Origin: an uncultured Alphaproteobacteria bacterium
GTDB taxonomy: Bacteria; Pseudomonadota; Alphaproteobacteria; RF32; CAG-239
Direction of reading: 5' to 3'
NCBI GenBank assembly: GCA_944391465.1
Contig: CALXTS010000004.1
Coordinates: 7,942-71,941 of the forward strand
DNA length: 64,000 bases
The notes under the pieces were generated by a model that saw only the letters and a program-made list of their open reading frames with translations, searched no databases and was not told the origin of the DNA. Shown piece by piece: positions 5,197 through 58,583 of this stretch (positions within the stretch are counted from its first letter, which is position 1; the number at the start of each line of letters is the position of its first letter). The translations under genes and the position numbers were made by a program.

Positions 5197-5210
5197 TTCT
5201 TATTTTTATA

Positions 5211-7837: not shown

Positions 7838-7902
7838 AATAATAATTTACAAAGATATCCGGCTAATCTAAATTAAAAGGGGTAGGTTGTAAGGAGTTAA
7901 AT

Positions 7903-9917: not shown

Positions 9918-9929
9918 TGAGAGAAAAAA

Positions 9930-10706: not shown

Positions 10707-10720
10707 TTTCTTTCTCAATA

Positions 10721-10760
10721 AAAAAACACCCTTGTTTTTTTATAAAAGCTGGGTGTTTTT
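10721..10760. terminator. Bidirectional hairpin terminator between the + operon and the end of the virB operon
   Basis: AAAAAACACCC (10721-10731) pairs with GGGTGTTTTT (10751-10760) around a 19-nt loop. An A run lies on one side and a T run on the other, so a U tract exists in either orientation. Confidence 0.55.
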
Positions 10761-10920
10761 GTTTTATACAGAAAATTTAATTAATATAAAACTTGGAATA
10801 TAATCATTCCCGTTATACCACAAAAACTGCTTGCTCAAGTCAAGCCAGTAGCTATGCTTATTATTGCGAAGATTTGATCGGAACCTATTATGCTGACAGT
10901 TGTTATACTGGTTATGATAT

Positions 10921-11889: not shown

Positions 11890-11901
11890 TAATTTCTCTC
11901 C

Positions 11902-42109: not shown

Positions 42110-42457
42110 TTATCCGTTGGTTGCAGAATCAAATGAATCGTTAAATCCTGCTTGACCTGTTGAGTCACCGGTTGCGTATGTTACGATAGAACCTGCGGCC
42201 GCAACAATTGCCAAACCTACAGCCAATCCGGCAAACCATGTCCATTTAATCTTACCGGTAATCGCCGTAAAGGCAACAGCTATCAAACCAAAACCACCGA
42301 CAACGAAGAATATTTTCTTAACTTCGGTAAATACGTTCAAAGCCTTTTCTTTTGCTGTTGACATAACAGACTGAGCTGATGCATCTCCTGCAAAGGCCAT
42401 CAGTGTAAACACTGCTACCAGACAGAATGTCCAGATATTATTTTTGATAAAGCGCAT
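42110..42457 (-). CDS. virB2: VirB2/TrbC-type T4SS pilin (115 aa precursor)
   Basis: Long signal peptide (WTFCLVAVFTLMAFAGDASAQ), then a two-helix hairpin KKIFFVVGGFGLIAVAFTAITGKIKWTWFAGLAVGLAIVAAAGSIVTYATG. First gene of the array that continues to virB3-virB4. SD AAGGAGA. Confidence 0.75.
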   Translation of the reverse strand: MRFIKNNIWTFCLVAVFTLMAFAGDASAQSVMSTAKEKALNVFTEVKKIFFVVGGFGLIAVAFTAITGKIKWTWFAGLAVGLAIVAAAGSIVTYATGDSTGQAGFNDSFDSATNG

Positions 42458-42899
42458 TATCTTTCTCCTTATTGTAATTACAAAATTCTCTATACTCTTT
42501 TAGAATAACCAATTTTGCGGATTTTTTCCAGCAAAAAGGTGGTGTCGAAAATTTTAATAACTATCTGTTTTTTATACATATTTTTTGCTGTAACAAAAAA
42601 TTCATAGTCCTTAAGCGTAAATTAACGTCGTTCAATGGTTAATTTATTGATTATCATTTGATAATCTTTTTAACTCAAAGCTCTATGCGCGTGAGTATAT
42701 TCCCAAAAAATTAATAAATACCTAAAGTTATTTTTTGTTTTTTTTTGGGAAATTTTCACCTTCTTAAAAGCCTTTTATTTTCTTTGAACGCCTTTAAAGA
42801 CTCGTGTTGATAAAAAGAATCCACAGATTTTTACTTTATTTTTTTGAGCTATTGCCAAGAGTCGCATTTTGATTTATCTAATGTTTAGAGGGGTTTATT

Positions 42900-44696
42900 A
42901 TGTCAAGAACGGGTTTAAAAACTTTTGTTTTGAGTTTTTGCGTATCCTTGTTTATGATTTTTCTCGTAAACGGGATATTTTGGCATATGCGCACCTCTAA
43001 CTCGAATGAAGATGTTGAAATTTCAAATAAAAATATCGTTCTTTTCCTTCGGGACAGCTCTCTCCCCTCTCATATAAAAGCTGCGCCGGTCAGAAAAATA
43101 GCTTTATCAACACTTGCTGATATTCCCCTTGATGATGCAGAAAACAAAAATCCCCTTTCTGATGAAATTAGCGCTGATATTGTCTATAGACCTGAAAATG
43201 AAATTATAATGGCAGGAGAAGTTTCTGATACTGATTTTTTAAATGGCTCTTCTTTTCTAGATGACGAGGTAACCCCCGAAAATCAGCCAGAGCCTGAAAA
43301 AATTGTCGAGAACTTTGAAACAATTATCAAAAATCCACCCAAAGAAATTAAACTGGCTGCTTTGGAAAATATTGACACGCCGCTTATCTCTTCAGAAGCA
43401 ATCCCCGACAAAACCCCCCCTTCAGCAACAAAGAAGGTTGAAGTTCAAGCGCCTGCTCCAACCAAATCTAAAATAACAGGAATAATTCCTTTGGTTCGCG
43501 AAGGGTTTGACAGCATAAAAAAAGACAATTCTCATAAGGATGAGGAAATTAAAGGGCAAAAAATGATGATAGCATCATTGCAGAACGATAATTCCAGAAT
43601 AGAAAAAGCCCTTCCTAAAAAGAAAAACAGGAAATCAGCCTCTATTCCTCTGATTAAAGAAAGCGCATCACCAAAAAAAGACACTCGCAATATTGTTGTT
43701 GCTAAGGAAACACCTACGAACATGGTTGCCTTGGCAGATAAGGATATCCCCATCAAAAGCATGAGTGATAAGCTCGATAGTGATAAAAAAATCGCAGAAC
43801 GGACATCTGAAAACTGGAAACAAATGTCAGAAACGAAGGTTCCTGACAGCCCTTGGGTTGTCGCTAAAAGCGCCGGAACTTCTGCGAATGCTATGTTGAA
43901 AAATGAAGAGTACTACAAAAAAGATTCCGAAACAATTAATAATCTTTTAAGCAAAAAAGATTCTTCCTCCCCCAAAAAGGGCGGTTCAGATACAAAAAAT
44001 ATTAAACTTGCATCTGAGACGGTTCAAAATTTGCTTATTCCAATACCTGAAGAGATTATCAATAATGAAAATTTGGTCCCCCAATTGGAGAGCTCACAAA
44101 AGACAGATAAAGCTGAGAAAAATATAAAAAAGGAGACTTCCCTAGCTGCTCAATTTGAAAAAAATGACAATAAGAACAAAGCTTCAGAAAGTGACAGCAA
44201 AAAAAATATAATTAACTCATTAAGTTCTATTTTTAATGCAGATTCAGCAATTCAGGAAGTTTCCAAGGCAAAAAAAAGTATTTCCGCTTTTGTTGATGGC
44301 TCAAAAAAACAACTAAAACGGAAAGCCAAAAGAAAAAGCAAAATAATGCCAACAGAAATGCGGCTTTCTTTTCAACCAAACAGAGCCGAGATTTCCGGTC
44401 AAACTTTGCGTTGGATACAAGCCTTTGCTACGAGAACGGCTGAAGACAACTCAACAGCCATTGAAATTAGAATTGACGGAACAAATTCAATGGATTTACA
44501 ACAAAGGAGATTGAATTTGTTACACAATATTTTAACCAATAAAGGTGTAGGCTCACATAAAATCAAAACAGTTTTCACAACACGCGAGCCAAACTCCTTT
44601 ATTATAAGGACAATCAATCTGACCGGGTTGTCCGATGAAGGAAACAAAAATGAAAATATAAATATCAATCGCGAAGGTTATTATTTGCAATGGTAA
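42900..44696 (+). CDS. Membrane-anchored Lys/Ser-rich protein with possible degenerate OmpA/MotB-like C-terminal domain; first gene of the pil cluster
   Basis: TM segment FVLSFCVSLFMIFLVNGIFW. The C-terminal segment LSFQPNRAEISGQTLRWIQAFATRTAEDNSTAIEIRIDGTNSMDLQQRRLNLLHNILTNKGVGSHKIKTVF loosely follows the OmpA_C pattern. The domain call is weak. Confidence 0.4.
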   Translation: MSRTGLKTFVLSFCVSLFMIFLVNGIFWHMRTSNSNEDVEISNKNIVLFLRDSSLPSHIKAAPVRKIALSTLADIPLDDAENKNPLSDEISADIVYRPENEIIMAGEVSDTDFLNGSSFLDDEVTPENQPEPEKIVENFETIIKNPPKEIKLAALENIDTPLISSEAIPDKTPPSATKKVEVQAPAPTKSKITGIIPLVREGFDSIKKDNSHKDEEIKGQKMMIASLQNDNSRIEKALPKKKNRKSASIPLIKESASPKKDTRNIVVAKETPTNMVALADKDIPIKSMSDKLDSDKKIAERTSENWKQMSETKVPDSPWVVAKSAGTSANAMLKNEEYYKKDSETINNLLSKKDSSSPKKGGSDTKNIKLASETVQNLLIPIPEEIINNENLVPQLESSQKTDKAEKNIKKETSLAAQFEKNDNKNKASESDSKKNIINSLSSIFNADSAIQEVSKAKKSISAFVDGSKKQLKRKAKRKSKIMPTEMRLSFQPNRAEISGQTLRWIQAFATRTAEDNSTAIEIRIDGTNSMDLQQRRLNLLHNILTNKGVGSHKIKTVFTTREPNSFIIRTINLTGLSDEGNKNENININREGYYLQW

Positions 44697-44751
44697 TAAG
44701 TATCTATCGCGCTTGATTATTTAATTTTCAGTATGTATGATAAGGAAAAAT

Positions 44752-45495
44752 ATGAAAAAATTAAAATTAGGGATTGAAAAAATGAGTAAATTAACCTTTA
44801 GCACTGTGTCCTTAATGTCTATTTTGACCTTAACAGGATGCTCATGTTTCGACAGCTGGGGGGCCGGAGATACTTATCTTGACACAAGCTACGAAACAGA
44901 AGTTGTTGCGGTTGCTCCGACACAGAACACCCCTACGACCCAACCAGCTTTGCCTACAGGTCCGATTTACACTGACCCTAATCTGCCGCCCGATAATAAT
45001 GACTTTGTGAACTTTCACGAAACTCAGGCGAATTATCGCGAGTTTGGGGAAAGAACTCCTCGGGATCAGCGTATTGTAACAGCGAGCGCCGGAAGTAACC
45101 TTTCCGCCTCTATTCCGCCGACAATTGATGAAGAAGTTACCGCTTATGAGGAAGAAATTCGAAACGGCTCAGAAGAAGTCTTTGAAGAAGGGGTAAGTGA
45201 AATTTCCGGTGGTACTAATGAAGATCCGGTTGAAGATTGGTTAGCGGAAGAAGGAAATACGTTGAAAGGACTATTAACAGAATGGAGTGAGAGATCTGGT
45301 TGGCGTTTGATATGGAACACCAACAGAAATTATAAACTTTCTGCTGGTGCAATGTTCCGTGGACGATATGCGGATGTCGCTTCTGCGCTTATTCGCTCTT
45401 TTGCAAGAGCGCGTCCGGCTCCAGTTGCTACTTTTTATAAAGGAAATCGTGTCTTGCTTGTAGAGACAATGGAGGATGAGAATGCATATAACTAA
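44752..45495 (+). CDS. pilL: PilL-like lipoprotein with TcpQ-type C-terminal domain (type IVb pilus)
   Basis: ATG 44752 follows AAGGAAA; the ORF track gives 44737. Lipobox ILTLTGCS. The C-terminal segment WLAEEGNTLKGLLTEWSERSGWRLIWNTNRNYKLSAGAMFRGRYADVASALIRSF resembles the TcpQ/PilL domain. It lies directly before the secretin. Confidence 0.65.
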   Translation: MKKLKLGIEKMSKLTFSTVSLMSILTLTGCSCFDSWGAGDTYLDTSYETEVVAVAPTQNTPTTQPALPTGPIYTDPNLPPDNNDFVNFHETQANYREFGERTPRDQRIVTASAGSNLSASIPPTIDEEVTAYEEEIRNGSEEVFEEGVSEISGGTNEDPVEDWLAEEGNTLKGLLTEWSERSGWRLIWNTNRNYKLSAGAMFRGRYADVASALIRSFARARPAPVATFYKGNRVLLVETMEDENAYN

Positions 45496-47086
45496 TTTTG
45501 GAAAAATTACGCTTGGCTTGTGTGTTGCAACTTTGGTTGCCTCTTGCTCCATTGCGACCAGTATGGATGCGACTATTGATCGAGATGTGGAAGCTGCGAC
45601 TCAATTAAAAGAAGAGTCAAAAATGCCGACAAGACCTTCTAATGAGAATTTAATTAAAGTAAAAGATGATATCTGGCTCGGCAATACCAGCGAAGTTGAG
45701 TATGAAGGAGATCCATTGCCGGCTTATTTAGAAGGAGCTGACGGTATTACCTTAATCAGTAACAGACCGATTACTTTATTTGAAATCGGAGATATGATTA
45801 ATAAAACGACATCTATCGGCGTAAGATATCAGTCCCAATTGGAAACTGATGTTAAAACTACCGGTGGAGAAAATAAACCTACACCAGAAAGTATTAATGC
45901 CGATTGGGCGGAGCCTAACAAAATGTTGGTTTCTTATCAGGGACCTTTAAGTGGCTTTTTAAATGATGTTTCTAGCCGTTTTGGCTTATGGTGGAAATAT
46001 GAAAAGAAAGAAATTCACTTTTATAAATATATAACCAAAACATTTGTCGTTTATAGTTTGCCTACAAATCCAAACTTATCCGTCAACGTCGGAGGATCTT
46101 CTTCGGGTGAAGGCGGAAGTTCGTCAATATCTTTGACCAGCAGTGCTCAGTTTGAATTGTGGCAAAATATTGAAAAGAGTATTTCTTCCATGATTGGAGA
46201 AGGAGCAAAATTGACGATGGCTCCTTCTGATGGTACGATTACATTAACAGCGACACCTGATGATATTCGTAAAGTTGCGGCTTATGTGAACGAGCAAAAT
46301 AATCGTTTGTCTCGTCAAGTTGCTATCAGCGTAAAGGTTTTGCAAGTTTCTATTACAGATACTGATGATTATGGCTTGGATTTGAAAGCTGCTTTCAAAG
46401 ATGGCATCACAAATGTTTCTTTAGCAGGTTCTTCAAGTGTTATGACATCCGAGAAGGATTTGGCTAATGGTTTTTCTTGGGGTATTTTGAAGAAAAATTG
46501 GTCTGCAGATGCTGCCGTTAAGGCTTTATCACAACAGACTAATGCAAGTTTGGTAACAAGTGGTACAGTCACGACATTAAACAATAAACCGGCCCCTATT
46601 CAAGTTACTCAAAAACAGAACTATATTGCTGAAATGACTAAGACTAATAGTGGTTCTGATGGGGATAACTATGATATTTCAGTTACGACAGAAGAAGTTG
46701 AGACTGGTTTTACATTAGATGTTTTGCCTCGTATTCTGGAACATGGTCGGATGTTGATAATGTTTAACATGACGCTTTCTGACTTGATTTCTTTGGAAAA
46801 AGTTGAATTTGGTTCTACAGATGATAACCAATACATCCAGAACCCGAAAATTGAGTCTCGCGCATTTTCTCAAGAAGTGGCTTTAACTTCCGGTGAGTCT
46901 TTAATCTTGACCGGATATGAAAAAGTTAACAACACCGCAACAAAAGAAGGAACGGGTTCTGCAAATAACTCTATTTTGGGAGGTTCTGCTTCTGCTAACA
47001 AGGAGAGAAATCTGTTAGTTATCATTCTGACACCGATTGTGTTGGAATCTCCGTTAATGCCGGAATCCAGAATGTCGATGAATTAG
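45482..47086 (+). CDS. pilN: Secretin lipoprotein (R64 PilN / TcpC / BfpB class)
   Basis: ATG 45482 lies 6 nt after GGAGG. Lipobox TLVASCS. Secretin domain strings: VAISVKVLQVSITDTDDYGLDL, LVTSGTVTTLNNKPAPIQV, ETGFTLDVLPRILEHGRMLIMFNM, GESLILTGYEK, NLLVIILTPIVLE. Confidence 0.85.
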   Translation: MHITNFGKITLGLCVATLVASCSIATSMDATIDRDVEAATQLKEESKMPTRPSNENLIKVKDDIWLGNTSEVEYEGDPLPAYLEGADGITLISNRPITLFEIGDMINKTTSIGVRYQSQLETDVKTTGGENKPTPESINADWAEPNKMLVSYQGPLSGFLNDVSSRFGLWWKYEKKEIHFYKYITKTFVVYSLPTNPNLSVNVGGSSSGEGGSSSISLTSSAQFELWQNIEKSISSMIGEGAKLTMAPSDGTITLTATPDDIRKVAAYVNEQNNRLSRQVAISVKVLQVSITDTDDYGLDLKAAFKDGITNVSLAGSSSVMTSEKDLANGFSWGILKKNWSADAAVKALSQQTNASLVTSGTVTTLNNKPAPIQVTQKQNYIAEMTKTNSGSDGDNYDISVTTEEVETGFTLDVLPRILEHGRMLIMFNMTLSDLISLEKVEFGSTDDNQYIQNPKIESRAFSQEVALTSGESLILTGYEKVNNTATKEGTGSANNSILGGSASANKERNLLVIILTPIVLESPLMPESRMSMN

Positions 47087-47106
47087 CGTATCTGAGGAGA
47101 TAGTCT

Positions 47107-48381
47107 TTGCTGGAAGATGCAGGTTTATTAGATGATGATTATGATGGCGGCTCCAGACGTTCGTGGGCGACATCTATTACTGTTGACGGAACAACTTATG
47201 CAACAAGTTTGTTCTGGCAGCCGCTACAAAATCTAAATGATCCTTTCCAAGAAGTTGAAGAAGCCTCGGCTGAAGTCTTGGAAGGTGCAGATTTATTCTG
47301 TATCAAGGGCGGAAAAGCTCCTCAGTTTGGTATTTGCGTTTCTCAGGAAGGCTATAAAAACGGCGAATTTGCTGCTGCTGTGGCTTTATCTACCGCTATG
47401 TCTAATTACGCTTCTTATGTCGGTGTTTTTAAGACAGATAAAGGTTGGTGGTATTTTTGCGTCAGAAACGATATTATCTTATCTGACGGTGATATGCTCT
47501 TTTTAGATGAAGAAGAAGCTAAAACACAGTTTATGTCAATGTTGGCGGTTCCGGATTGGGATAAAAAGTTTGCTCCGACGGAGTGGAATATCCCAGAAAC
47601 TGAAAATGTTGATATTGAGGAAATTATTTCCCGAGGTGCCAAAGCAAAGCTACAGAAAATTAAAGGTTTACGTGGCGCTAAACTTTTAGCTGTTATTGGC
47701 GTTTCTGCTGTTGTCGGAATTTGGCTATTTTCGAGCATCATCAACCATATCTTTTTGACACCTCAGGTGCGTCCGGTTGTTGTCCCCGTTAAGCCTAAAG
47801 TTATTAAACAAATTGAACAACCTCCAGAGATTAAGCCTTGGGAAAAGGTTACAAATCCCGTTATGACAGCACAGGAATGCTATAAAGGAATTGTTCGTTT
47901 GGTTCAGATTTTACCGCCAGGTTGGAAAATTTCTCCGTTAACCTGTACATCGGGAAGCATTGCAACATCATGGACCAGAGAAATGGGACGCCTGTCTTGG
48001 ATGAAAAAGGCTCTGGATGAAAGTGGCTATACTTTAACTGGGGTCAGTTTTTCCGGTGACGGGAATAATGTTACGGTTACAATGCCTTTACCCGTAATTG
48101 AACAACAGGCATCTCCTCCGACAATGACGATGGTAAATTTGCAAAATGACATCAATGATACTTTCCAAGCAATCGGTTATACTATTTCTCTTGGATCTTC
48201 ATCATACACGTCGAACAGAGGAACAATTTATAAGATGATTACCTTTACAATGGATTCAACTCATGATCCATTGGTTTGGATAAAATTATTAACAAAATAT
48301 TCAGGACTTGAGTTTAAAACTATAGGGTATAACCCAGACTCAAAAACTTGGCATTATGAGGGGATAATCTATGTTTTATAG
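47107..48381 (+). CDS. PilO-like pilus accessory protein (R64 nomenclature), by size and position
   Basis: 424 aa with a TTG start after GAGGAG. One central TM (LLAVIGVSAVVGIWLFSSII). It lies between the secretin and the PilP-like gene, as in R64/ICE pil clusters. No motif-level proof. Confidence 0.45.
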   Translation: MLEDAGLLDDDYDGGSRRSWATSITVDGTTYATSLFWQPLQNLNDPFQEVEEASAEVLEGADLFCIKGGKAPQFGICVSQEGYKNGEFAAAVALSTAMSNYASYVGVFKTDKGWWYFCVRNDIILSDGDMLFLDEEEAKTQFMSMLAVPDWDKKFAPTEWNIPETENVDIEEIISRGAKAKLQKIKGLRGAKLLAVIGVSAVVGIWLFSSIINHIFLTPQVRPVVVPVKPKVIKQIEQPPEIKPWEKVTNPVMTAQECYKGIVRLVQILPPGWKISPLTCTSGSIATSWTREMGRLSWMKKALDESGYTLTGVSFSGDGNNVTVTMPLPVIEQQASPPTMTMVNLQNDINDTFQAIGYTISLGSSSYTSNRGTIYKMITFTMDSTHDPLVWIKLLTKYSGLEFKTIGYNPDSKTWHYEGIIYVL

Positions 48382-49867
48382 AATAGAAAATAATTTGGCT
48401 GTTTTGCTACTTGCTTTGTTAATGAGCGGAAACTTATCGGAAGCTAAGGCTCAAGGTGTTGTCTCTTTAGGCAATGAGATAAAATCTGAAGATAATACCT
48501 TAAATTTGGCTATCCCTAATGAAGATGCTATTTTTGGAGATGATGGGAATTCTGCCAACGCAAAGCCTAAGCCGGTTAAGAATATTGATGGTCCCTTACC
48601 TCTACCTGCAAGTATTACCGGAGCCAAGCCGGTAGCTGATAATAAAAAGCCTTCAGGAGATGGGCCGTTGCCTTTACCTGCAAGCATTACAGGAGGCGCT
48701 AACTCTAAAAGTTCCGATGGACCTTTGCCTTTGCCGGCAAGTATTACCGGGAAAGCGTCCAATGCCCTTGACATTCCAGAACCATTTATGCCTAAGGCCT
48801 CTTCTAACTTAGGAAAGCTGGGGGCTACTCAACCTTCTACTCTAACTAGTGATGACTTATTGAACGATCCTATTTTTTCGCAGGCTTCAGACTTGGAAAA
48901 ACAAACGACGTTGCTAAACTTGGAATTGAGAAAAGAAAAAGTCAAAAATGAAATAGAAGCGATTAAAAAACAACGTCAGCAAGCCATTGAAGATGAAAAG
49001 GACAAACAAGCCGCTAAAGAAAAAGCTAAAATAGAGTGGGAAAAAGCTCAAGAGCAGAAGGTTATTCAAGAACAACAAAAGTTGAGAGAACTTGATATTG
49101 ATTTTGAAAAATTACGCCAAGAGCGTTTGCTTAATGCATATAAAAACAAAATGCTCGAAGAACACCAAAAGTGGGTTGTCCTTAATGGTGAAATGCTTGA
49201 ACAGTTAGATAACATGAAAAAAGATCAGAAAGATGTTATTTCTGACGCTAAAAACAAACTGGAAAACATTAAAAATATGGCTAATTTAGCAAAAATTAAA
49301 ATAGCTGAAGCTAAAGGTGAATACAAACGGGAAATTTCTGATTTGCAAACGCAAGTCTCTATTTTGAAAGCGCGTATTGACGCTCAGGAAAAAGAGCTAC
49401 AAGCTCGTGAGTTGGAAAAACAAAATCCATTTGCCGAAGGCGCAGAAAATCCTGAAGCTGCAGAAGTTCCTGAGGAAAATATTGTTGAGGAGATAGAGGT
49501 TCCGGAGGCTCAGCTTTCAGATATGTATGCCGTTATGGAAATTCGTGGTCAAGGTGGTGAATTAATTGCTAAAATCATGAATCAGAACGGAGCTAACTTC
49601 TTTGTGAAGAAAGGAACTGCTCTTCAGAGCGGGCATATTATTGATGAAATCCAACCAACATATGTGACCGCAACAAAGAATGGTATTAAAGATTATCTTT
49701 ACTTTTCTGCCGGAGGAATTGTTCCTCTTGAACCTAAACAAGACTTAACATCAATTAATAAGGTATCAGATGTCAGTTCTGATGAAATGCCGGAAGAAGG
49801 TGAGGCTCGGAGCTTTGTAACAAGTGATGGAGTCCCCGGTCTTGGAGGACAAATGATAGGAAGATAA
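48371..49867 (+). CDS. PilP-like protein with signal peptide, three DGPLPLPASITG repeats, coiled coil and C-terminal beta domain
   Basis: Signal peptide LLLALLMSGNLSEAKAQ. Lys/Glu coiled coil. The C-terminal segment YAVMEIRGQGGELIAKIMNQNGANFFVKKGTALQSGHIIDEIQPTYVTATKNG resembles the PilP beta-sandwich pattern. Position is immediately 5' of the ATPase. Confidence 0.5.
   Translation: MFYRIENNLAVLLLALLMSGNLSEAKAQGVVSLGNEIKSEDNTLNLAIPNEDAIFGDDGNSANAKPKPVKNIDGPLPLPASITGAKPVADNKKPSGDGPLPLPASITGGANSKSSDGPLPLPASITGKASNALDIPEPFMPKASSNLGKLGATQPSTLTSDDLLNDPIFSQASDLEKQTTLLNLELRKEKVKNEIEAIKKQRQQAIEDEKDKQAAKEKAKIEWEKAQEQKVIQEQQKLRELDIDFEKLRQERLLNAYKNKMLEEHQKWVVLNGEMLEQLDNMKKDQKDVISDAKNKLENIKNMANLAKIKIAEAKGEYKREISDLQTQVSILKARIDAQEKELQARELEKQNPFAEGAENPEAAEVPEENIVEEIEVPEAQLSDMYAVMEIRGQGGELIAKIMNQNGANFFVKKGTALQSGHIIDEIQPTYVTATKNGIKDYLYFSAGGIVPLEPKQDLTSINKVSDVSSDEMPEEGEARSFVTSDGVPGLGGQMIGR
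48587..48751 (+). repeat. Three copies of a 36-bp coding motif (DGPLPLPASITG) spaced 72 and 57 bp apart
   Basis: Copies at 48587-48622, 48659-48694 and 48716-48751. Codons differ between copies while the peptide is conserved. Confidence 0.85.
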
Positions 49868-51513
49868 TGGCGGAAGAAGAAGGCGAAGAAAAGACTGAGG
49901 CCGTTGAAAATAATACTGAAGGAAAACAAGATACTGCTCAGTCAAAATCAATAGTTGAAAAATATTTTTCGGGTGGAGCTCAGCTTTTGACTTTGCCTAA
50001 TTCTTCTTTAGCCGTAAACGATGATACACGTCGATTACTTGCATTATTTTCAGATGGACGGTTTCTTGTTGTTGAAACTCATAAATTTGATGGACGTGTT
50101 CTTAGTTTTGAGGTTATGGTTCGCAAAAGGCGTTTACCAATTGCCAAACCTACCTATGTTTCACAAGCTGAACTTAATGCCATTTACAGTATTGGTGAGC
50201 GTCGACAGGCAGCTATTGAAGTTGAAGAAGATTCAAGTTTTGACCAAGTCCAAATGCAGAAGGACTTTGTTAACGTTGTTGTTCGTGCCGCAGATAAAAA
50301 AGTTTCCGATATTCACGTTATTGTTGCTGACAATACACAAATTATGTTCCGTATAAACGGTATGATGACAACCGAAATGGAGTATAATAAAGAATGGGGA
50401 GAATCTTTTGTTCGTGCCGCCTTTGCTTCTGCCGATATTTCAGATTCAAACTACGCCCAAAATGAATTCCAAGCAGCTCAAAAGTTGGGATCTACACCTT
50501 TGCGCGGTTCTAAAGGTAAACTTATGCTTCCGCATAACGTTTTAGCTATTCGTTTGCAATTTAATCCGATTGCTTTTGGTTCTCAGTATCTGGTTATGCG
50601 TCTGCTGTATGCTGATGATAACCCTGAGGGAAACGGCGATTTATCTTCTCTTGGTTTTGGAGAATACGAAGAAAATCTATTTTATAGACTACGAGCCGTT
50701 CCTGTTGGTTTGAATGTTGTTGCCGGCCCTACGGGTTCAGGAAAATCGACAACATTGCAAAGAAACATGATTAAACTTCTGCAAGAAAAAAATTATGAAA
50801 TTAATTTGATTACCGTGGAAGACCCTCCTGAGTATCCTATCCCCGGAGCTCGGCAAATGCCGGTTACAAACGCCAATACCGAGGAAGAGAAGGATGAACA
50901 GTTTACAAAGGCCTTGTCTGCAGCTTTGCGTTCCGACCCTGACGTAATGATGGTTGGTGAGATACGTTCCTTGTCTGCGGCTCAGTTAACTTTTAAGGGC
51001 GCCTTATCCGGTCACGGTGTCTGGACGACTTTACACGCCAACTCTGCACCGGCAATTATTGCTCGTTTGAGAGATATGGGCGTAGAAACATTTAAATTAC
51101 TTGACCCCGAATTAATGAAAGGTCTTATTTCTCAGCGTTTATTCCGTAAATTGTGTCCTCACTGTCGTGTTTCCGTTAAAGACAGGTTAGATGAACCTGC
51201 TGTGCAGCGTTTGAAGGTTGCTTTGGGAGATTTTGGTATTGAAAATACTTATGTTCGTGGTCCGGGCTGTAAATATTGTAACAATACCGGCATTAAGGGA
51301 CGTATGAGTGTTCCTGAGATAATCTTGCCTGATGCTATGTTCTTAGAGCTAATGATTAAAGGAGAAACCAGAAAAGCTATTGACTACTGGACCAGCGATT
51401 TAAACGGACGTACATTAAAAGAAGCTGCTATTGAAAGAATGTTAAAAGGTTTTATTGATTTGGATGAAGTTGAACGTTGGTGTGGCTTGCTTGACCAACG
51501 CCCTGTTTACTAA
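49867..51513 (+). CDS. pilQ: GspE/PilB-family pilus assembly ATPase (R64 PilQ equivalent)
   Basis: Walker A GPTGSGKST, Asp box LITVEDPPEYP, Walker B DPDVMMVGEIR, His box GHGVWTTLHAN, tetra-Cys motif CPHC...CKYC. Confidence 0.93.
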   Translation: MAEEEGEEKTEAVENNTEGKQDTAQSKSIVEKYFSGGAQLLTLPNSSLAVNDDTRRLLALFSDGRFLVVETHKFDGRVLSFEVMVRKRRLPIAKPTYVSQAELNAIYSIGERRQAAIEVEEDSSFDQVQMQKDFVNVVVRAADKKVSDIHVIVADNTQIMFRINGMMTTEMEYNKEWGESFVRAAFASADISDSNYAQNEFQAAQKLGSTPLRGSKGKLMLPHNVLAIRLQFNPIAFGSQYLVMRLLYADDNPEGNGDLSSLGFGEYEENLFYRLRAVPVGLNVVAGPTGSGKSTTLQRNMIKLLQEKNYEINLITVEDPPEYPIPGARQMPVTNANTEEEKDEQFTKALSAALRSDPDVMMVGEIRSLSAAQLTFKGALSGHGVWTTLHANSAPAIIARLRDMGVETFKLLDPELMKGLISQRLFRKLCPHCRVSVKDRLDEPAVQRLKVALGDFGIENTYVRGPGCKYCNNTGIKGRMSVPEIILPDAMFLELMIKGETRKAIDYWTSDLNGRTLKEAAIERMLKGFIDLDEVERWCGLLDQRPVY

Positions 51514-51524
51514 GGTGATAAAAA

Positions 51525-52646
51525 ATGGCTGAAACAAAACGCAAATCTCAATCTATGCAACTGGCGATGAAACGCTTCAATACCATTGAAGAATATTACG
51601 CCAAAATGATTGTGCAGATGTCTAATAAAACTCGGTTAAAGATGTATCGGAAAATTGCATCTTTAATGAAAAACCGATTTTCCTTAATGGATGCTTTAGA
51701 TATGCTTCATGATGGGGCTAGTAACGGCGGTAAAAACCCTAGCGAACCTCTTGCTATTGCTATTGCCGCTTGGGGAAGAGCATTAAACAACGGTAAAACT
51801 TTCTCCGATGCTTTGAAAGGCTGGGCGCCCGACCGAGAGAGATTGATGCTTTCTGTTGGTGATGTTTCTGACCTTGAAGGTGCTTTGTTAAACCTTATTA
51901 AAGTAACCGAAGGTTCTACCAAAATGATTAGGCCTATTGTCGGAGCTATTGCTTATCCTGCCTTTTTGTTTATGATGTCTGTTTTAATTATTTATGCCAT
52001 CGGTGTTTATATGGTTCCGCCTATGCTTGATGCGGCGCCGGGCGTTCAGTGGCATGGAATGGCTGCCGACTTGGTGGATTTATCTTATTGGATTAAAGAA
52101 AATTGGTTAGTTGCTTTCGCTTCACTGCCTATAATTATGATTGTCATTTATGCTACAGTCGGTATTTGGACCGGCCCTATTCGTGTTCTTTTTGACAGTA
52201 TTCCCCCATGGTCACTTTATAAAGTATTTGTCGGTATTAGTTGGCTTTTGGCTTTGTCTGCTCTTGTAAAAGGAGGAACGCCTGTATCGACAGCAATGCG
52301 CGCTCTAAGACGTGATTCCACAAAATATTTAAAGGAACGAATTGATAAGACTTTGGTTTTTATCAATAACGGTGATAACTTAGGTCAAGCTCTTGCTAAA
52401 ACAAAATTAAACTTCCCTGATCCGGAAATTATCGGAGATTTAAAAATTTATTCTGAATTGGATAACTTTGAAGAAGCTCTGGATAATCTTGCAAATGAGT
52501 GGTTGGAAGAATCTGTATTTGTAATTGAAGAAAAAGCCAGTATTTTGAACATGGTCGCTATTTTATCCGTTGGTGCTGTTATTGCCTGGGCCGTTATGGG
52601 TACTTTTGAAATGCAAGACCAGATTACAAGCGGTATGGGAGGTTAA
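51525..52646 (+). CDS. pilR: GspF/PilC-family inner-membrane platform protein (R64 PilR equivalent)
   Basis: 373 aa with two cytoplasmic helical repeats and three TM segments (IAYPAFLFMMSVLIIYAIGVYMV, LVAFASLPIIMIVIYATVGIW, ILNMVAILSVGAVIAWAVMG). It follows the ATPase. Confidence 0.88.
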   Translation: MAETKRKSQSMQLAMKRFNTIEEYYAKMIVQMSNKTRLKMYRKIASLMKNRFSLMDALDMLHDGASNGGKNPSEPLAIAIAAWGRALNNGKTFSDALKGWAPDRERLMLSVGDVSDLEGALLNLIKVTEGSTKMIRPIVGAIAYPAFLFMMSVLIIYAIGVYMVPPMLDAAPGVQWHGMAADLVDLSYWIKENWLVAFASLPIIMIVIYATVGIWTGPIRVLFDSIPPWSLYKVFVGISWLLALSALVKGGTPVSTAMRALRRDSTKYLKERIDKTLVFINNGDNLGQALAKTKLNFPDPEIIGDLKIYSELDNFEEALDNLANEWLEESVFVIEEKASILNMVAILSVGAVIAWAVMGTFEMQDQITSGMGG

Positions 52647-52647
52647 A

Positions 52648-53250
52648 ATGGATTTTTTATCCCAAAAATTAAAAAATTTTGCCACTTTTGTAAAAACGCA
52701 ATATACTCAAGCATCTTTAAAAAAAAGAGCTCTGTTTTTGTTGCTTTTTGCTTTTTTAATTTTTGTTTTTAACGGATTTTTTTATAGAGCTGAGACTTTA
52801 GAAGCGCCGGAAGAACCTTCCAATCTGTTAAAATTAACGGAAAATATACGACGTTATTATCAAAATCGTCCTGATTATTGGGGGCTTAACTCTGATTCTA
52901 TAATTAAGAATAAAATTGTTCCGTTAGCTTTATTAAAAAATGACCGAATAATCTCCGGTTTCGGAACTGATATTTTAGTAGGCAACACTCCCAATGGTTC
53001 AATGCTTATGCCCGGAGCCAGAAGTTTTAATATTATTTATAGTAATTTAAATAAAAAGCAGTGCATTGAATTAGCTTCCGGAAAATTTGATGAAAAATTT
53101 TGGCTAGGAATTATAGATGTTACTATCAACAATAGCATTAAAAATGAGGTTTTTAGTTGGAATGACAAAAAAAATATTTTGCCAATTAAAAAAAATATTG
53201 CTAAAGAGATTTGTAAAAGCTCTAATACGATAATTTTTCATATTGAATAA
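52648..53250 (+). CDS. Pilin-fold paralog lacking a prepilin leader (200 aa)
   Basis: ATG 52648 follows GGGAGG; the ORF-track start 52570 overlaps pilR. One TM (ALFLLLFAFLIFVFNGFFY). ISGFGTDILVGNTPNGS...FNIIYSNLNKKQCIELASGKFDEKFWLGIIDVTINN parallels the pilins' ISAFGGEVLVSAVQGADGT...FQIIFNGLGKDACTSLASSDWGTDGLVGIIVNG. Confidence 0.5.
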   Translation: MDFLSQKLKNFATFVKTQYTQASLKKRALFLLLFAFLIFVFNGFFYRAETLEAPEEPSNLLKLTENIRRYYQNRPDYWGLNSDSIIKNKIVPLALLKNDRIISGFGTDILVGNTPNGSMLMPGARSFNIIYSNLNKKQCIELASGKFDEKFWLGIIDVTINNSIKNEVFSWNDKKNILPIKKNIAKEICKSSNTIIFHIE

Positions 53251-53280
53251 TAACTAAAGACATATTTTATCTAAATATCC

Positions 53281-53323
53281 TTACTATTGACATAATTGTT
53301 CATTTTTTATTAATTTGTTATAG
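53281..53323 (+). promoter_or_regulatory. Conserved 43-bp upstream element of pilin gene 1 (candidate promoter)
   Basis: TTACTATTGACATAATTGTTCATTTTTTATTAATTTGTTATAG aligns without gaps to 54058-54100 and 54844-54886. It contains TTGACA and a TAATTT box about 18 nt later, and ends 39 bp before the ATG. Confidence 0.45.
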
Positions 53324-53361
53324 TTATAGTAAAGGGTAACAGAAAGTTAGGGAGAGAAACT

Positions 53362-53979
53362 ATGAGAAATTTCTTCAAAAATGAACAATCCGGTCGTTCT
53401 ATGGTCGAGATGCTTGGCGTGCTTGCCATCATCGGTGTCTTGTCCGTCGGCGGTATCTCCGGTTATTCTAAGGCCATGGCTAAATTCAAGCTAACCAAAG
53501 CTCAAGACCAATTAACCATGATGATTATGAACATCAGAACCGCTTATGTTACCTCTCCTGGATATCCGGGACTGAATAACTCTTTAGCTGCTGATTATAA
53601 ACTTGTTTCTCAAGAAATGGTTGTTTCTCAAGGCGGTAGCAGTCTTATCAGTGCTTTTGGTGGTGAAGTATTGGTTAGTGCCGTACAAGGAGCTGACGGA
53701 ACTGCAAACGGTGCTTTTCAGATTATATTTAATGGTTTGGGTAAAGATGCTTGCACATCCTTAGCTTCTTCTGATTGGGGTACTGACGGTTTGGTCGGCA
53801 TCATTGTTAATGGCTCAAAACAATCAGTTTCTAATACTATTGCTACAGGCGGTGAAAGTTGTACGACAGGTATTGCAGGAAAACTCTGCTTACCTTCATC
53901 CCTTCCGGTCTCTCTTCCGAATGCCCGTGCAGCTTGTAGCTCCAATAACCAAAATTCAATCAGTTGGGTTTATAACTAA
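53362..53979 (+). CDS. pilS: Type IV prepilin, variant A
   Basis: Leader MRNFFKNEQSG then RSMVEMLGVLAIIGVLSVGGISGY (Gly at -1, Glu at +5, hydrophobic helix). C-terminal Cys pair DAC...AAC brackets a variable region. SD GGGAGAG. Confidence 0.88.
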   Translation: MRNFFKNEQSGRSMVEMLGVLAIIGVLSVGGISGYSKAMAKFKLTKAQDQLTMMIMNIRTAYVTSPGYPGLNNSLAADYKLVSQEMVVSQGGSSLISAFGGEVLVSAVQGADGTANGAFQIIFNGLGKDACTSLASSDWGTDGLVGIIVNGSKQSVSNTIATGGESCTTGIAGKLCLPSSLPVSLPNARAACSSNNQNSISWVYN

Positions 53980-54001
53980 TACTTTCTCAGATTTCTTTAC
54001 C

Positions 54002-54034
54002 AGAGCAACATTTGTTTGATGTTGCTCTTTTTTG
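54002..54034 (+). terminator. Rho-independent terminator after pilin 1
   Basis: AGAGCAACA (54002-54010) pairs with TGTTGCTCT (54020-54028), then TTTTT. Confidence 0.75.
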
Positions 54035-54057
54035 TTGAGGAAAATTTGCTGATGTTA

Positions 54058-54100
54058 TAACTAAAGACAGAATTGTTCACTTTTTTTTAATTTATTATAT
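54058..54100 (+). promoter_or_regulatory. Conserved 43-bp upstream element of pilin gene 2
   Basis: TAACTAAAGACAGAATTGTTCACTTTTTTTTAATTTATTATAT. Ends 35 bp before the ATG at 54135. Confidence 0.4.
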
Positions 54101-54134
54101 TTTATTGTATAGGAAATATTCTAGGAGATAAATA

Positions 54135-54761
54135 ATGAGTAATTTCTTCAAAAATGAGCAATCCGGTCGTTCTATGGTGGAAATGCTCGGCGTACTCGCT
54201 ATCATCGGTGTTTTATCGGTTGGTGGTATTTCCGGTTATTCTAAAGCTATGGCTAAATATAAATTAACCAAAGCTCAAGACCAATTAACCATGATGATTA
54301 TGAATATCAGAACCGCTTATGCTACTTCTCCTGGATATCCGGGTTTAGATAATTCTTTGGCTGCTGATTATAAACTTGTTTCTCAGGAAATGGTTGTTTC
54401 TCAAGGCGGCAGCAGTCTTATCAGTGCTTTTGGCGGAGCTGTTGATGTTAGTGCTATTAAGGGTGCTGACGGTACTGCCAATGGTGCTTTTACAATCATT
54501 TTCAAAGGTTTGGGTAGAGATGCTTGTACTTCTTTAGCTTCCTCTGACTGGGGTACCGATGGTTTAATCGGTATTAGAGCTAAAAATGCGAGTTTATCTG
54601 TAAGTGACGCCTCCGCTGATGTTGTAAAAACAGCCAGTGGAACTGCTGGAAACGGAGATACAAATATTCAGTTACCTTCTACCTTGCCCATGAGTTTGGT
54701 TAAAGCCAGAGCTGCTTGCAGTTCTAATAACCAGAACTCAATTATGTGGATTTATAACTAG
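54135..54761 (+). CDS. pilS: Type IV prepilin, variant B (copy 1)
   Basis: MSNFFKNEQSG then RSMVEMLGVLAIIGVLS. The mature protein is identical to 55685-56311. Its variable region IRAKNASLSVSDASADVVKTASGTAGNGDTNIQLPSTLPMSLVKARAAC differs from variants A and A'. Confidence 0.88.
   Translation: MSNFFKNEQSGRSMVEMLGVLAIIGVLSVGGISGYSKAMAKYKLTKAQDQLTMMIMNIRTAYATSPGYPGLDNSLAADYKLVSQEMVVSQGGSSLISAFGGAVDVSAIKGADGTANGAFTIIFKGLGRDACTSLASSDWGTDGLIGIRAKNASLSVSDASADVVKTASGTAGNGDTNIQLPSTLPMSLVKARAACSSNNQNSIMWIYN
54141..54759 (+). repeat. 619-bp direct repeat, copy 1 (pilin B coding sequence)
   Basis: Base-for-base comparison with 55691-56309 (offset 1550) shows a single mismatch: T at 54701 versus C at 56251. 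Identity starts at codon 3 and ends at the second base of the stop codon (TAG versus TAA). Confidence 0.9.
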
Positions 54762-54780
54762 ATTAGTCTTTTCTATTTTC

Positions 54781-54810
54781 AGGCGATGCTAACAACATCG
54801 CCTTTTTTTA
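54781..54810 (+). terminator. Rho-independent terminator after pilin 2
   Basis: AGGCGATG (54781-54788) pairs with CATCGCCT (54796-54803), then a T run. Confidence 0.75.
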
Positions 54811-54843
54811 TTTAACTAAAGTTAGGCCTTTTTATTTTTTTAC

Positions 54844-54886
54844 TTACTAAGGATAGAATTGTTTATGCTTTATTAATTTGTTATTG
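54844..54886 (+). promoter_or_regulatory. Conserved 43-bp upstream element of pilin gene 3
   Basis: TTACTAAGGATAGAATTGTTTATGCTTTATTAATTTGTTATTG. Ends 36 bp before the ATG at 54922. Confidence 0.4.
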
Positions 54887-54921
54887 TTAAACTATAAGTT
54901 AATTAATATAGGAGAGGAACC

Positions 54922-55545
54922 ATGAAAATATTAAATAAAAATGAGCAATCCGGTCGTTCTATGGTTGAGATGCTCGGCGTGCTTGCCATCATCGGCGTTT
55001 TATCGGTTGGTGGTATTTCCGGTTATTCTAAAGCTATGGCTAAATATAAATTAACCAAAGCCCAAGACCAATTAACCATGATGATTATGAATATCCGAAC
55101 CGCTTATGTTACCTCTCCTGGGTATCCGGGGTTAGATAATGCTTTGGCTGGAGATTATAAACTTGTTTCCCAGGAAATGGTTGTTTCTCAAGGCGGCAGC
55201 AGTCTTATCAGTGCTTTTGGTGGTGAGGTTATTGTTAGTGCCGTACAGGGAGCTGACGGTACTGCTAATGGTGCTTTCCAAATCATTTTTAACGGTCTGG
55301 GTAAAGATGCTTGCACTTCGCTTGCTTCTTCTGACTGGGGTACTGATGGTTTATTAGGAATTAAAGTTAGTAGTGCTAAGCAATCTAAAGATGATTCTAT
55401 TGCTACAGGTGCAACTGCTGCTGATTGCTCTTCTGATGCAAAAGATAAACTTTGTCAACCGGCAGAACTTCCTATCGCTTTGGGTTTAGCTCGCTCTGCT
55501 TGTAGCTCTAATAACCAAAATTCAATCAGTTGGGTTTATAACTAG
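54922..55545 (+). CDS. pilS: Type IV prepilin, variant A'
   Basis: MKILNKNEQSG then RSMVEMLGVLAIIGVLS. The body is closest to variant A (GEVIVSAVQGADGTANGAFQIIFNGLGKDACTSLASSDWGTDGL). Its Cys-bracketed region is distinct and has an extra Cys pair (DCSSDAKDKLC). Confidence 0.88.
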   Translation: MKILNKNEQSGRSMVEMLGVLAIIGVLSVGGISGYSKAMAKYKLTKAQDQLTMMIMNIRTAYVTSPGYPGLDNALAGDYKLVSQEMVVSQGGSSLISAFGGEVIVSAVQGADGTANGAFQIIFNGLGKDACTSLASSDWGTDGLLGIKVSSAKQSKDDSIATGATAADCSSDAKDKLCQPAELPIALGLARSACSSNNQNSISWVYN

Positions 55546-55565
55546 GTTAAAAATTTTCCTCTCTT

Positions 55566-55591
55566 AGGCGGTGTTTCACCGCCTTTTTTTA
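55566..55591 (+). terminator. Rho-independent terminator after pilin 3
   Basis: AGGCGGTG and CACCGCCT form a stem with a short loop, then TTTTTTT. Confidence 0.7.
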
Positions 55592-55684
55592 TAAAAAATA
55601 TTGCATAAATAAAATTATAGTTGATAGATTTTATCTTTATAGCTAGAGTATGTTTAATATTTTATGATTCCTTGGGAGGTTTTC

Positions 55685-56311
55685 TTGTTAAATTTCTTCA
55701 AAAATGAGCAATCCGGTCGTTCTATGGTGGAAATGCTCGGCGTACTCGCTATCATCGGTGTTTTATCGGTTGGTGGTATTTCCGGTTATTCTAAAGCTAT
55801 GGCTAAATATAAATTAACCAAAGCTCAAGACCAATTAACCATGATGATTATGAATATCAGAACCGCTTATGCTACTTCTCCTGGATATCCGGGTTTAGAT
55901 AATTCTTTGGCTGCTGATTATAAACTTGTTTCTCAGGAAATGGTTGTTTCTCAAGGCGGCAGCAGTCTTATCAGTGCTTTTGGCGGAGCTGTTGATGTTA
56001 GTGCTATTAAGGGTGCTGACGGTACTGCCAATGGTGCTTTTACAATCATTTTCAAAGGTTTGGGTAGAGATGCTTGTACTTCTTTAGCTTCCTCTGACTG
56101 GGGTACCGATGGTTTAATCGGTATTAGAGCTAAAAATGCGAGTTTATCTGTAAGTGACGCCTCCGCTGATGTTGTAAAAACAGCCAGTGGAACTGCTGGA
56201 AACGGAGATACAAATATTCAGTTACCTTCTACCTTGCCCATGAGTTTGGTCAAAGCCAGAGCTGCTTGCAGTTCTAATAACCAGAACTCAATTATGTGGA
56301 TTTATAACTAA
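55685..56311 (+). CDS. pilS: Type IV prepilin, variant B (copy 2)
   Basis: TTG 55685 lies 5 nt after GGGAGG (55674-55679). The ORF-track ATG 55664 has no SD and would add an atypical extension. From codon 3 the DNA is identical to 54141-54759 apart from one synonymous change. Confidence 0.85.
   Translation: MLNFFKNEQSGRSMVEMLGVLAIIGVLSVGGISGYSKAMAKYKLTKAQDQLTMMIMNIRTAYATSPGYPGLDNSLAADYKLVSQEMVVSQGGSSLISAFGGAVDVSAIKGADGTANGAFTIIFKGLGRDACTSLASSDWGTDGLIGIRAKNASLSVSDASADVVKTASGTAGNGDTNIQLPSTLPMSLVKARAACSSNNQNSIMWIYN
55691..56309 (+). repeat. 619-bp direct repeat, copy 2 (pilin B coding sequence)
   Basis: See copy 1. The flanks (promoter region, first two codons, stop codon, terminator) are unrelated between the copies. 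Confidence 0.9.
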
Positions 56312-58123: not shown

Positions 58124-58200
<77 letters not shown>

Positions 58201-58492: not shown

Positions 58493-58583
58493 GGATAGAT
58501 GGCCGAGTGGTCGAAGGCGCACGATTGGAAATCGTGTATACCCCTAAAGGGTATCCAGGGTTCGAATCCCTGTCTATCCGCCA
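58493..58583 (+). tRNA. tRNA-Ser (anticodon GGA), class II with long variable arm
   Basis: Acceptor GGATAGA/TCTATCC, anticodon arm CACGA-TTGGAAA-TCGTG, variable arm TACCC..GGGTA, T arm CAGGG-TTCGAAT-CCCTG, discriminator G, encoded CCA. 91 nt. Confidence 0.9.

Follow-up and report, generated by a model that had tools for sequence, protein, structure and literature searches.

What does a type IVb pilus operon do when it lies head-to-head with a VirB-type type IV secretion system (T4SS) on a bacterial chromosome: does the pilus serve the secretion system, or are the two machines neighbours only? The question is raised by a 64,000-nucleotide (nt) stretch of contig CALXTS010000004.1, from an uncultured alphaproteobacterium (GTDB order RF32, CAG-239). 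This whole stretch is called the window below, and all coordinates are in its numbering. We find that the pilus locus is indeed an operon for a type IVb pilus of the lipoprotein-secretin (PilN/BfpB) class, and that a gene of the T4SS is its divergent neighbour in nearly every related species examined. As the best explanation, we consider it somewhat probable that a chromosomal type IVb contact pilus stands beside an expanded VirB-type T4SS and aids its action.

A type IVb pilus operon of the lipoprotein-secretin class

The pil locus spans 42900-56311 on the + strand. The first-pass annotation, made from the DNA letters alone, had listed a TcpQ-domain lipoprotein, a lipoprotein secretin, a PilO-like protein, a PilP-like protein, a GspE-type ATPase, a GspF-type platform and a pilin, and profile searches found all of these genes in that order. 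The range given there, 42458-53250, does hold the genes that it listed; it made no mention of the 1.8-kb first gene, which encodes a protein of 598 amino acids (aa), and it ended before the four true prepilins, which lie beyond 53250. The genes are as follows.

42900-44696, + strand: first gene of the pil operon, 598 aa, no Pfam or NCBIfam match
44737-45495, + strand: PilL/BfpG-like lipoprotein, 252 aa, with a C-terminal TcpQ domain (PF10671, 57 bits, cutoff 27; lipobox Cys35)
45476-47086, + strand: PilN/BfpB-family lipoprotein secretin (TIGR02520, 282.9 bits; Secretin, PF00263; lipobox Cys24)
47107-48381, + strand: PilO2/BfpC-like bitopic assembly protein (PAP_PilO, 40.6 bits, cutoff 26.7; single transmembrane (TM) segment near residue 194)
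48371-49867, + strand: PilP-like protein, 498 aa (TIGR03021, 33.5 bits, E 7e-8, residues 321-433; a borderline match against the cutoff of 34.65)
49867-51513, + strand: pilus extension ATPase, BfpD/PilQ class (T2SSE, 222 bits)
51525-52646, + strand: inner-membrane platform protein, BfpE/PilR class (T2SSF, 84 bits in two stretches)
52570-53250, likely start ATG 52648, + strand: pilin-domain protein with an N-terminal TM anchor (PilS domain, 25 bits)
53362-53979, 54135-54761, 54922-55545 and 55685-56311, + strand: four tandem type IVb prepilins (PilS about 43 and Bundlin about 30 bits each)

The class of the pilus is indicated by its secretin and its ATPase. Among the NCBIfam secretin families the PilN family (TIGR02520) scored best, about 5 bits under its curated cutoff of 287.65, followed by MshL at 113, GspD at 45 and type IVa (T4a) PilQ at 28 bits. 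The sole PDB match of the secretin was BfpB (196 bits), and 3041 plasmid records matched it; among the matches listed, all but two were annotated as PilN family. The secretin gene lies directly downstream of the TcpQ-domain gene. Compared with the PDB, the ATPase matched BfpD over its full length (319 bits, E 3.6e-94), against 137-170 bits for GspE, PilF and PilB. Neighbour-joining trees, built without bootstrap and rough in topology, place the ATPase inside the type IVb (T4b) group, apart from E. coli GspE and HofB, and the secretin likewise, apart from GspD and HofQ. Thus both proteins group with T4b pili and not with T4a pili or type II secretion systems, as had been expected of them.

We compared the pilus components by blastp with three reference clusters, from a Bosea plasmid, from E. 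coli Bfp and from an R64-like (IncI1-complex) plasmid, with the following scores in bits.

ATPase: Bosea 332; Bfp (BfpD) 315; R64-like PilQ 162
Platform: Bosea 231; Bfp (BfpE) 203; R64-like PilR 102
TcpQ protein: Bosea 78; BfpG 72; R64-like PilL 39
PilO: Bosea PilO2 124; BfpC 59; R64-like, no match

The Bosea or the Bfp-type cluster outscored the R64-like one in six of the seven pilus components compared, and PilP matched none of them. The pilin genes follow the platform gene, which is the R64 and Bosea order and not that of Bfp. Judged from these comparisons, the pilus is Bfp/Bosea-like in sequence and R64-like in gene order, and the label of R64/ICE-type (ICE, integrative and conjugative element) that the first-pass annotation had given it is too narrow. 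That account was right in stating that pilM, the prepilin peptidase gene pilU, pilT and pilV with its shufflon are absent from the window: PilM, a PilT-type transglycosylase, PilU, PilV and a shufflon recombinase had no match in the window or in 80 related loci (tblastn; Pfam on window open reading frames (ORFs)). BfpH, BfpI, BfpJ, BfpK, BfpL and BfpP were likewise not detected in the window or in these loci. The Pfam scan of the window covered ORFs of at least about 96 aa that were judged to be genes, and the related loci are the best 80 of 288 matching stretches from a scan of one genome per GTDB species.

The 598-aa protein has an N-terminal TM helix, a long, variable, disordered low-complexity linker and a conserved C-terminal domain (76 orthologues) of about 95 residues, at residues ~481-575. 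In an AlphaFold2 model of the C-terminal 148 aa, the folded core has predicted local distance difference test (pLDDT) values of 76-92 and runs beta-alpha-beta-alpha-beta-beta; a Foldseek search of the PDB with this model returned OprF, Pal, OmpA-like and MotB domains (E 1.5e-5, probability 1.0). The domain is predicted from the model to have an OmpA/Pal/MotB-like fold. On visual inspection, Thr-Asn (Thr-Ser in the consensus) stands where the peptidoglycan-binding motif canonically has Thr-Asp, and the Arg is kept; because the Thr-Asp is altered, peptidoglycan binding by this protein is put forward as a hypothesis and not as a finding. The one Pfam match at E up to 10, to CpaD, was insignificant. 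We also considered whether this might be a second TcpQ-domain protein, as found in Hydrogenophaga and Burkholderia clusters, and rejected it (BLASTP E = 2.1; hhalign probability 0.6%). The PilP-like protein is 498 aa long, against about 150 aa in R64; it carries a signal peptide, three DGPLPLPASITG repeats and a long Glu/Lys-rich, coiled-coil-looking stretch ahead of the C-terminal PilP domain.

The pilin-domain gene at 52570-53250 is present in 70 of the 80 related loci. An alignment of 61 orthologues shows no prepilin cleavage motif and no Gly-1/Glu+5, and the product is predicted to be a membrane-anchored pilin-fold protein whose N-terminal anchor would be uncleavable. The four genes that follow share an inferred prepilin cleavage site, NEQSG/RSMVEM (the slash marks the cut), with Gly-1 and Glu+5, a short leader of about 11 residues and Arg, i.e. 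a non-Phe residue, at +1. Gly-1, Glu+5 and both Cys are kept when these prepilins are aligned with R64-like and IncI2 PilS, and the four differ mainly between the conserved Cys pair; copies 2 and 4 are identical proteins except for the second leader residue. Unitig depth doubles across the duplicated pilin segment in two metagenomes (DNA runs) that hold this strain, and other strains in public metagenomes have a different pilin array. Among the 66 related species with sufficient flank, 0, 1, 2, 3 and 4 pilin copies occur in 9, 33, 14, 9 and 1 species, respectively. A BfpF-like retraction ATPase (~321 aa) lies directly after the pilin gene(s) in 38 of these 66 relatives, for example at 18465-19430 of locus L031, and is missing from the closest relative (L001) as well as from the window. 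Three of the four pilin copies are preceded by a conserved 60-nt repeat, with TTGACA in the first copy, and a terminator hairpin lies between pilin copies at 55569-55590.

The divergent secretion system and its linkage to the pilus

The pil operon faces the following features across a short spacer.

42588-42608, + strand: 21-nt element CTGTAACAAAAAATTCATAGT, a conserved block about 130 bp upstream of virB2
42852-42878, + strand: 27-nt element TTGCCAAGAGTCGCATTTTGATTTATC, about 20 nt before the pil start codon at 42900, near-invariant across 39 species
42458-42899, no strand: AT-rich divergent spacer, 442 bp, 27.1% GC against 38.6% for the window
42110-42457, - strand: virB2 (TrbC/VirB2 pilin), first gene of the T4SS operon, facing pil (PF04956, 38.8 bits; 36% identity to an annotated Microvirga VirB2)
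10921-41985, - strand: rest of the T4SS (Pfam and NCBIfam; VirB3 pairwise)
1-4081, + strand: end of an operon of VirB6-like paralogues (weak TrbL matches, 22 bits, cutoff 25.9; 6 TM-like segments)

Upstream neighbours were counted in the 73 of 80 loci that have sufficient upstream flank and are therefore informative. The adjacent divergent neighbour of the pil operon is virB2 in 53 of these, across a spacer of 70-869 bp (median 330), and a virB6-like gene in 16; in 13 of the 16, virB2 lies 5-7 kb further on, behind housekeeping genes. Two loci are otherwise rearranged. Thus, a T4SS gene stands head-to-head with the pil operon in 69 of the 73 informative species (about 95%), in two configurations, which bears out the proposal that the two loci are conserved together.

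The spacer itself is as the first-pass annotation described it, 442 bp long and AT-rich, with virB2 on its far side; its description as the same control region for both operons does not hold. Alignment across 39 species reveals conserved blocks, namely two ribosome-binding sites, a block adjoining virB2, the 21-nt element (consensus CTGTAACAAAAAATTCA(C/T)AGT), AATCCACA at 42818-42825, and the 27-nt element, which reads as a -35 TTGCCA, 17 nt and a -10 TATCTA. If this is the promoter, transcription of the pil operon would be expected to begin near 42887. The 21-nt and 27-nt elements each occur once in the window. The 27-nt element is found about 25 nt upstream of the pil operon (reaching about 50 nt) in 20 of 20 rearranged loci, mostly with 0 mismatches, and is kept with the pil operon also in two loci that have no T4SS gene in the upstream flank. 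The 21-nt element, in turn, stays about 130 bp upstream of virB2 in 16 of 16 loci in which virB2 is separated from the pil operon. Each operon keeps its own upstream element when the two are separated; the spacer therefore consists of two back-to-back, separable promoter modules with no demonstrated common operator. A scan of the spacer for sigma-70 promoters found 5 where 3.5 +/- 1.6 were expected, which is not above chance, so that the promoter assignments rest on conservation. Rfam gave nothing credible in the spacer and only two tRNAs in the window.

The 27-nt element is identical or has 1-2 mismatches across species whose secretins are just 61-86% identical, a constraint far beyond the needs of two promoter hexamers. 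The invariance of the whole element, the stretch between the hexamers included, suggests that a protein-binding site may overlap the promoter. A 323-aa regulator with two HTH_3 (XRE-type) domains is encoded at 4225-5196 (+), between the VirB6-like operon and five unknown genes, and occupies the same position in the related locus L093; it is a candidate regulator of the T4SS, the pilus or both, and one candidate for a protein that binds the 27-nt and 21-nt elements.

The VirB-type system that the first-pass annotation had described as divergent from the pil cluster was recovered on the - strand. The order after virB2 is a second VirB2-like gene, a 1877-aa secreted protein, VirB3, VirB4, six unknowns, two VirB8, VirB9-SPOR, a 1113-aa beta-flower protein, a 1515-aa VirB10 and VirB11. 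Pfam matches above the gathering score were TrbC, CagE_TrbE_VirB, VirB8 (twice), CagX, TrbI and T2SSE; NCBIfam scores were all under the curated cutoffs, and VirB3 was identified by a pairwise match (E 1e-9). At the left end, 1-4081 holds the C-terminal third of a ~1125-aa VirB6-like/Peptidase_M23 protein, followed by a 1018-aa VirB6-like protein. Exact look-ups of the proteins of the window returned no record, and the flank on this side was therefore inferred from L093, a 69%-identical relative, in which the partial protein has a counterpart (71% identity to residues 800-1111), the VirB6-like operon occupies 1968-12222, and additional VirB6-like genes lie in the 9 kb further left. The T4SS paralogues are thus two VirB2, two VirB8 and at least three VirB6-like proteins. 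Walker A motifs occur in VirB4, in VirB11 and in the pilus ATPase and in no other protein of the window, except for a match in VirB9 that is taken as chance.

The nearest plasmid T4SS is that of Microvirga (VirB4 39%, VirB11 40% and VirB10 33% identity), a conjugative-type cluster with a relaxase and a type IV coupling protein (T4CP). Plasmids of 'Ca. Paracaedimonas' come next (VirB4 31%), with a compact T4SS region, annotated throughout as hypothetical proteins, on a MOBQ plasmid.

Several proteins of the system have unusual architectures. VirB10 (11902-16449, -) is 1515 aa long, its canonical TrbI domain (1215-1405) following about 1200 residues of 4/5-fold beta-flower repeats, and the 1113-aa protein (16453-19794, -) inserted between virB9 and virB10 has eight beta-flower stretches with RHS/DUF3659 matches; both the extension and the insertion are unusual for a T4SS core. 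VirB9 (19770-21452, -; 560 aa) ends in a SPOR (septal peptidoglycan-binding) domain, and the Microvirga VirB9 is also about 550 aa long. The 1877-aa Ala/Glu/Lys-rich protein (35651-41284, -), between the virB2 genes and virB3, has a signal-like N-terminus and no domain match, and varies highly in size and sequence among species. The VirB6-like protein with the Peptidase_M23 domain (~1125 aa in L093) may be a peptidoglycan hydrolase standing in for VirB1.

All 80 loci come from metagenome-assembled genomes of gut Alphaproteobacteria or proteobacteria, of human, chicken, roe deer, rabbit, mouse and rumen origin. The secretin has hundreds of close relatives at 61-93% identity, all named ones from gut metagenome-assembled Alphaproteobacteria; the relatives include 'Proteobacteria bacterium CAG:495' and 'Ca. 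Scatocola faecigallinarum' (NCBI lineage Rhodospirillales). The GTDB order of CAG-495 we take to be RF32. The window sequence itself was found in chicken gut metagenomes, and the longest contigs with the locus reach about 1.8-1.9 Mb. Two orthologues of the 598-aa protein (P0165 and P0182) lie on contigs of 1.83 and 1.86 Mb that occur in hundreds of samples, which suggests that a member of the clade common in the human gut has a small genome and that these contigs may be closed. The locus is clearly part of the chromosome. In relatives it is flanked or interrupted by dnaK, shikimate kinase, ROK kinase and similar genes, and its neighbours in the window are gpsA, an M20 peptidase and tRNA genes. 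The genes for tRNA-Arg(CCT) (58124-58200) and tRNA-Ser(GGA) (58493-58583) lie 2 kb downstream of the pilin array, with no integrase or integration-site repeat seen there.

Mean identity across species is 83% for the pilus ATPase, 81% for the platform and 82% for VirB4, compared with 44% for the pilin, 38% for the pilin-fold protein, 37.5% for the 598-aa protein and 37.6% for the 1877-aa protein. These values point to purifying selection on the cytoplasmic and inner-membrane machinery and to fast evolution of the exposed parts. The identities of PilN and VirB2 to those of the window co-vary across species (r = 0.83), as those of any vertically inherited gene pair would. The corresponding correlation between VirB4 and Pil proteins was weak (r = 0.3-0.45), because the flanks hold mere fragments of virB4, and was set aside as evidence.

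One module or two neighbours

We propose that the pilus would act as an adhesion or contact fibre, equipped besides with a retraction ATPase in the 38 relatives that encode one, and would hold the cell to a target surface, either another microbe or host material, and would thereby let the T4SS act at its short range. The pilus would thus do for this T4SS what pili of its class do for VirB-type conjugation in IncI2 plasmids. The T4SS would be a vertically inherited, probably non-conjugative machine, and the prepilin peptidase would have to be encoded elsewhere in the genome. That pilus and T4SS form one functional module, as the first-pass annotation proposed, is plausible given the conserved linkage and the analogy to IncI2; on that precedent and the 95% linkage, contact through the pilus enabling the T4SS is the most likely reading, and it is unproven.

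Several observations count against such coupling. The spacer holds no element common to both operons that could be found across the rearranged loci, and the two upstream elements are separable in rearranged species. In two loci (L007 and L022) the pil operon lies among housekeeping genes (thymidine phosphorylase-like, DnaK) with no T4SS gene in 7.5 kb upstream. The closest plasmid relatives differ, the T4SS being nearest to Microvirga and the pilus to Bosea; hence inheritance as a single known module does not account for the pairing. Some pilus parts are missing as well: there is no A24 prepilin peptidase in the window (Pfam; tblastn with five reference peptidases) or in the 80 related loci, and no retraction ATPase and no canonical minor pilin or adhesin were found in the window. 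One chicken-gut metatranscriptome yielded short contigs on virB2b, on the first pil gene at its 5' end and on the genes for the TcpQ protein, PilP, the ATPase and the pilins, at a depth of 2-10x that is alike over pil, T4SS and housekeeping genes; the reads are unstranded and possibly DNA. Because all three groups of genes are equally thinly covered, these data are uninformative on co-regulation, and a second search for RNA data gave no clear RNA run.

It is a distinct possibility, though a rather doubtful one, that the two machines are functionally independent, the pilus being a general Bfp-like adhesion or aggregation fibre that came to lie here by clustering of envelope genes or an old co-acquisition. 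Bfp, the closest characterised relative, is an adhesion and aggregation pilus untied to a T4SS, and the promoter elements that move each with its own operon, the pil operons amid housekeeping genes, the promoter-like repeats and terminator of the pilin genes and the different closest relatives of pilus and T4SS all fit this explanation. What it does not readily explain is a T4SS gene as divergent neighbour in 69 of 73 species in two configurations, which is hard to account for without selection for linkage; the co-variation of PilN with VirB2 also speaks against it, though expected of any vertically inherited pair.

We regard it as unlikely that the region belongs to an integrated conjugative element or to the remnant of a plasmid and still transfers DNA, with the pilus as a mating-pair stabiliser as in IncI2 and IncI1. 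The same pilus class does serve in this way in IncI2, the Microvirga T4SS is conjugative in type, two tRNA genes lie 2 kb downstream, and a XerC/D-like recombinase occurs in an inserted segment of L025. However, no relaxase, T4CP/VirD4 or integrase was found in the 64 kb (tblastn for relaxase and T4CP; no integrase domain in the scanned ORFs), and neither relaxase nor VirD4 is annotated in the additional 9 kb of L093. The GC content shows no discontinuity, housekeeping genes are interspersed with the region in relatives, PilV and the shufflon are absent, and the identities of the relatives are evenly spread from 61% to 93%, which fits vertical descent over many species. That the pilus cluster is a decaying remnant is highly improbable. 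The missing peptidase, retraction ATPase and minor pilin would suit decay, but the nine genes are all intact, both in the window and in as many as 80 species, the machinery shows strong conservation, the promoter element does not vary and the pilin array is expanded, not eroded. Prepilin peptidase genes are, moreover, often unlinked from pilus clusters.

Returning to pilus contact in aid of the T4SS, a bolder form of the proposal, which we offer tentatively and hold to be rather unlikely, is that a retractile Bfp-like pilus and a relaxase-less, paralogue-expanded VirB T4SS make up the core contact-and-delivery organelle of a widespread alphaproteobacterial lineage of the vertebrate gut. If so, these bacteria would lead a contact-dependent life, attaching to and injecting into other gut microbes, protists or host cells, and tandem variable pilins would take the place of a shufflon in varying target specificity. 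Coupling of the two machines, if true, would extend the principle of a type IVb pilus assisting a VirB system from conjugative plasmids to a chromosomal, probably non-conjugative system. The clade lives in the gut of humans, chickens, ruminants, rabbits and mice; no functional work on it came up in literature searches for RF32, CAG-239, CAG-495 and Scatocola together with secretion or pili. A locus that almost all species examined have retained, and whose exposed parts evolve fast, is a lead to the cell-cell interactions of this clade, and the separable, near-invariant promoter-like elements are handles for reporter or binding studies.

Comparison with known systems

The Bfp cluster of enteropathogenic E. 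coli plasmid pMAR2 shares with the window the gene series BfpG, BfpB, BfpC, BfpU (a small periplasmic protein, at the PilP position), BfpD and BfpE. Among solved structures, those of Bfp match best, at 319 bits for the ATPase and 196 bits for the secretin, and the BfpF-like ATPase is found in relatives of the window. In Bfp, however, the pilin gene comes first and not after the platform gene, and BfpP, BfpH and BfpI/J/K/L are missing from the window, which adds the OmpA-fold first gene, the 498-aa PilP-like protein, the four pilins and the chromosomal setting beside a T4SS; identities are only 22-35%. The thin pilus of R64 (IncI1) has the same order L-N-O-P-Q-R-S, a PilN-family secretin and PilS-family pilins with Gly-1/Glu+5 and the Cys pair. 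In contrast to R64, the window is without PilM, PilT, PilU, PilV, shufflon and Rci and scores lower against it than against Bfp or Bosea, and the R64 pilus is partnered by an I-type (Dot/Icm-like) T4SS.

The first-pass annotation took the pairing of such a pilus with a VirB-type system to be undescribed, yet it is known from plasmids. The IncI2 plasmids TP114 and pJIE3685-1 combine a PilN-class pilus with a system of mating-pair formation type T (MPF_T; VirB3-VirB11) in one locus: in pJIE3685-1 (typed as MPF_T by MOB-suite), pilL and pilM come first, followed by virB3-virB11 and virD4 and after these by pilN-pilV with peptidase and shufflon. TP114 depends on its pilus for conjugation, in broth as well as in the gut, where the pilus stabilises mating pairs (PMC10654706). 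In Hydrogenophaga pPBL-H3_B2-1 (MPF_T), virB2-virB10 are followed directly by two TcpQ-domain genes and by those for PilN, PilO2, the ATPase, the platform and a pilin, and in Burkholderia pB1701 a PilN cluster is followed by VirB3 and other T4SS genes. The VirB4 of the window is 21-25% identical to that of the plasmid systems pairing a pilus with VirB. For IncI2 the values are 25% for VirB4 and 27-33% for the pilus proteins, and the IncI2 locus differs in lying on a conjugative plasmid, together with a relaxase, VirD4, a peptidase, PilV and a shufflon, and in having co-directional, interleaved genes where those of the window are divergent.

In the rvh T4SS of the Rickettsiales, VirB8 and VirB2 are each duplicated, there are several large paralogues of the VirB6 type, and the genes are dispersed in islets (PMC2653234). 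The system described here is likewise chromosomal and vertically inherited, with duplicated VirB2 and VirB8, several VirB6-like proteins and, in some species, genes in separate islets. It differs from rvh in that no second VirB4 or VirB9 was seen in the window and that no virD4 follows virB11, and the likeness is one of gene content, the nearest plasmid relatives being those of Microvirga and Paracaedimonas. An association of rvh with a type IVb pilus is not known to us.

Overall, the pilus is matched best in sequence by a cluster on plasmid pANAM02 of Bosea sp. ANAM02, which has the same order: TcpQ, PilN, PilO2, unknown, ATPase, platform and second ATPase. This is a 692-kb plasmid with no VirB genes annotated within 16 kb of the cluster, and the neighbouring topoisomerase III and strawberry-notch genes suggest a different kind of mobile element. 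Sequence comparison thus indicates that the association of pilus and T4SS seen here was probably assembled independently. The chromosomal, relaxase-less, clade-wide variant, with tandem pilins instead of a shufflon and an OmpA-fold first gene, appears to be undescribed in the literature searched.

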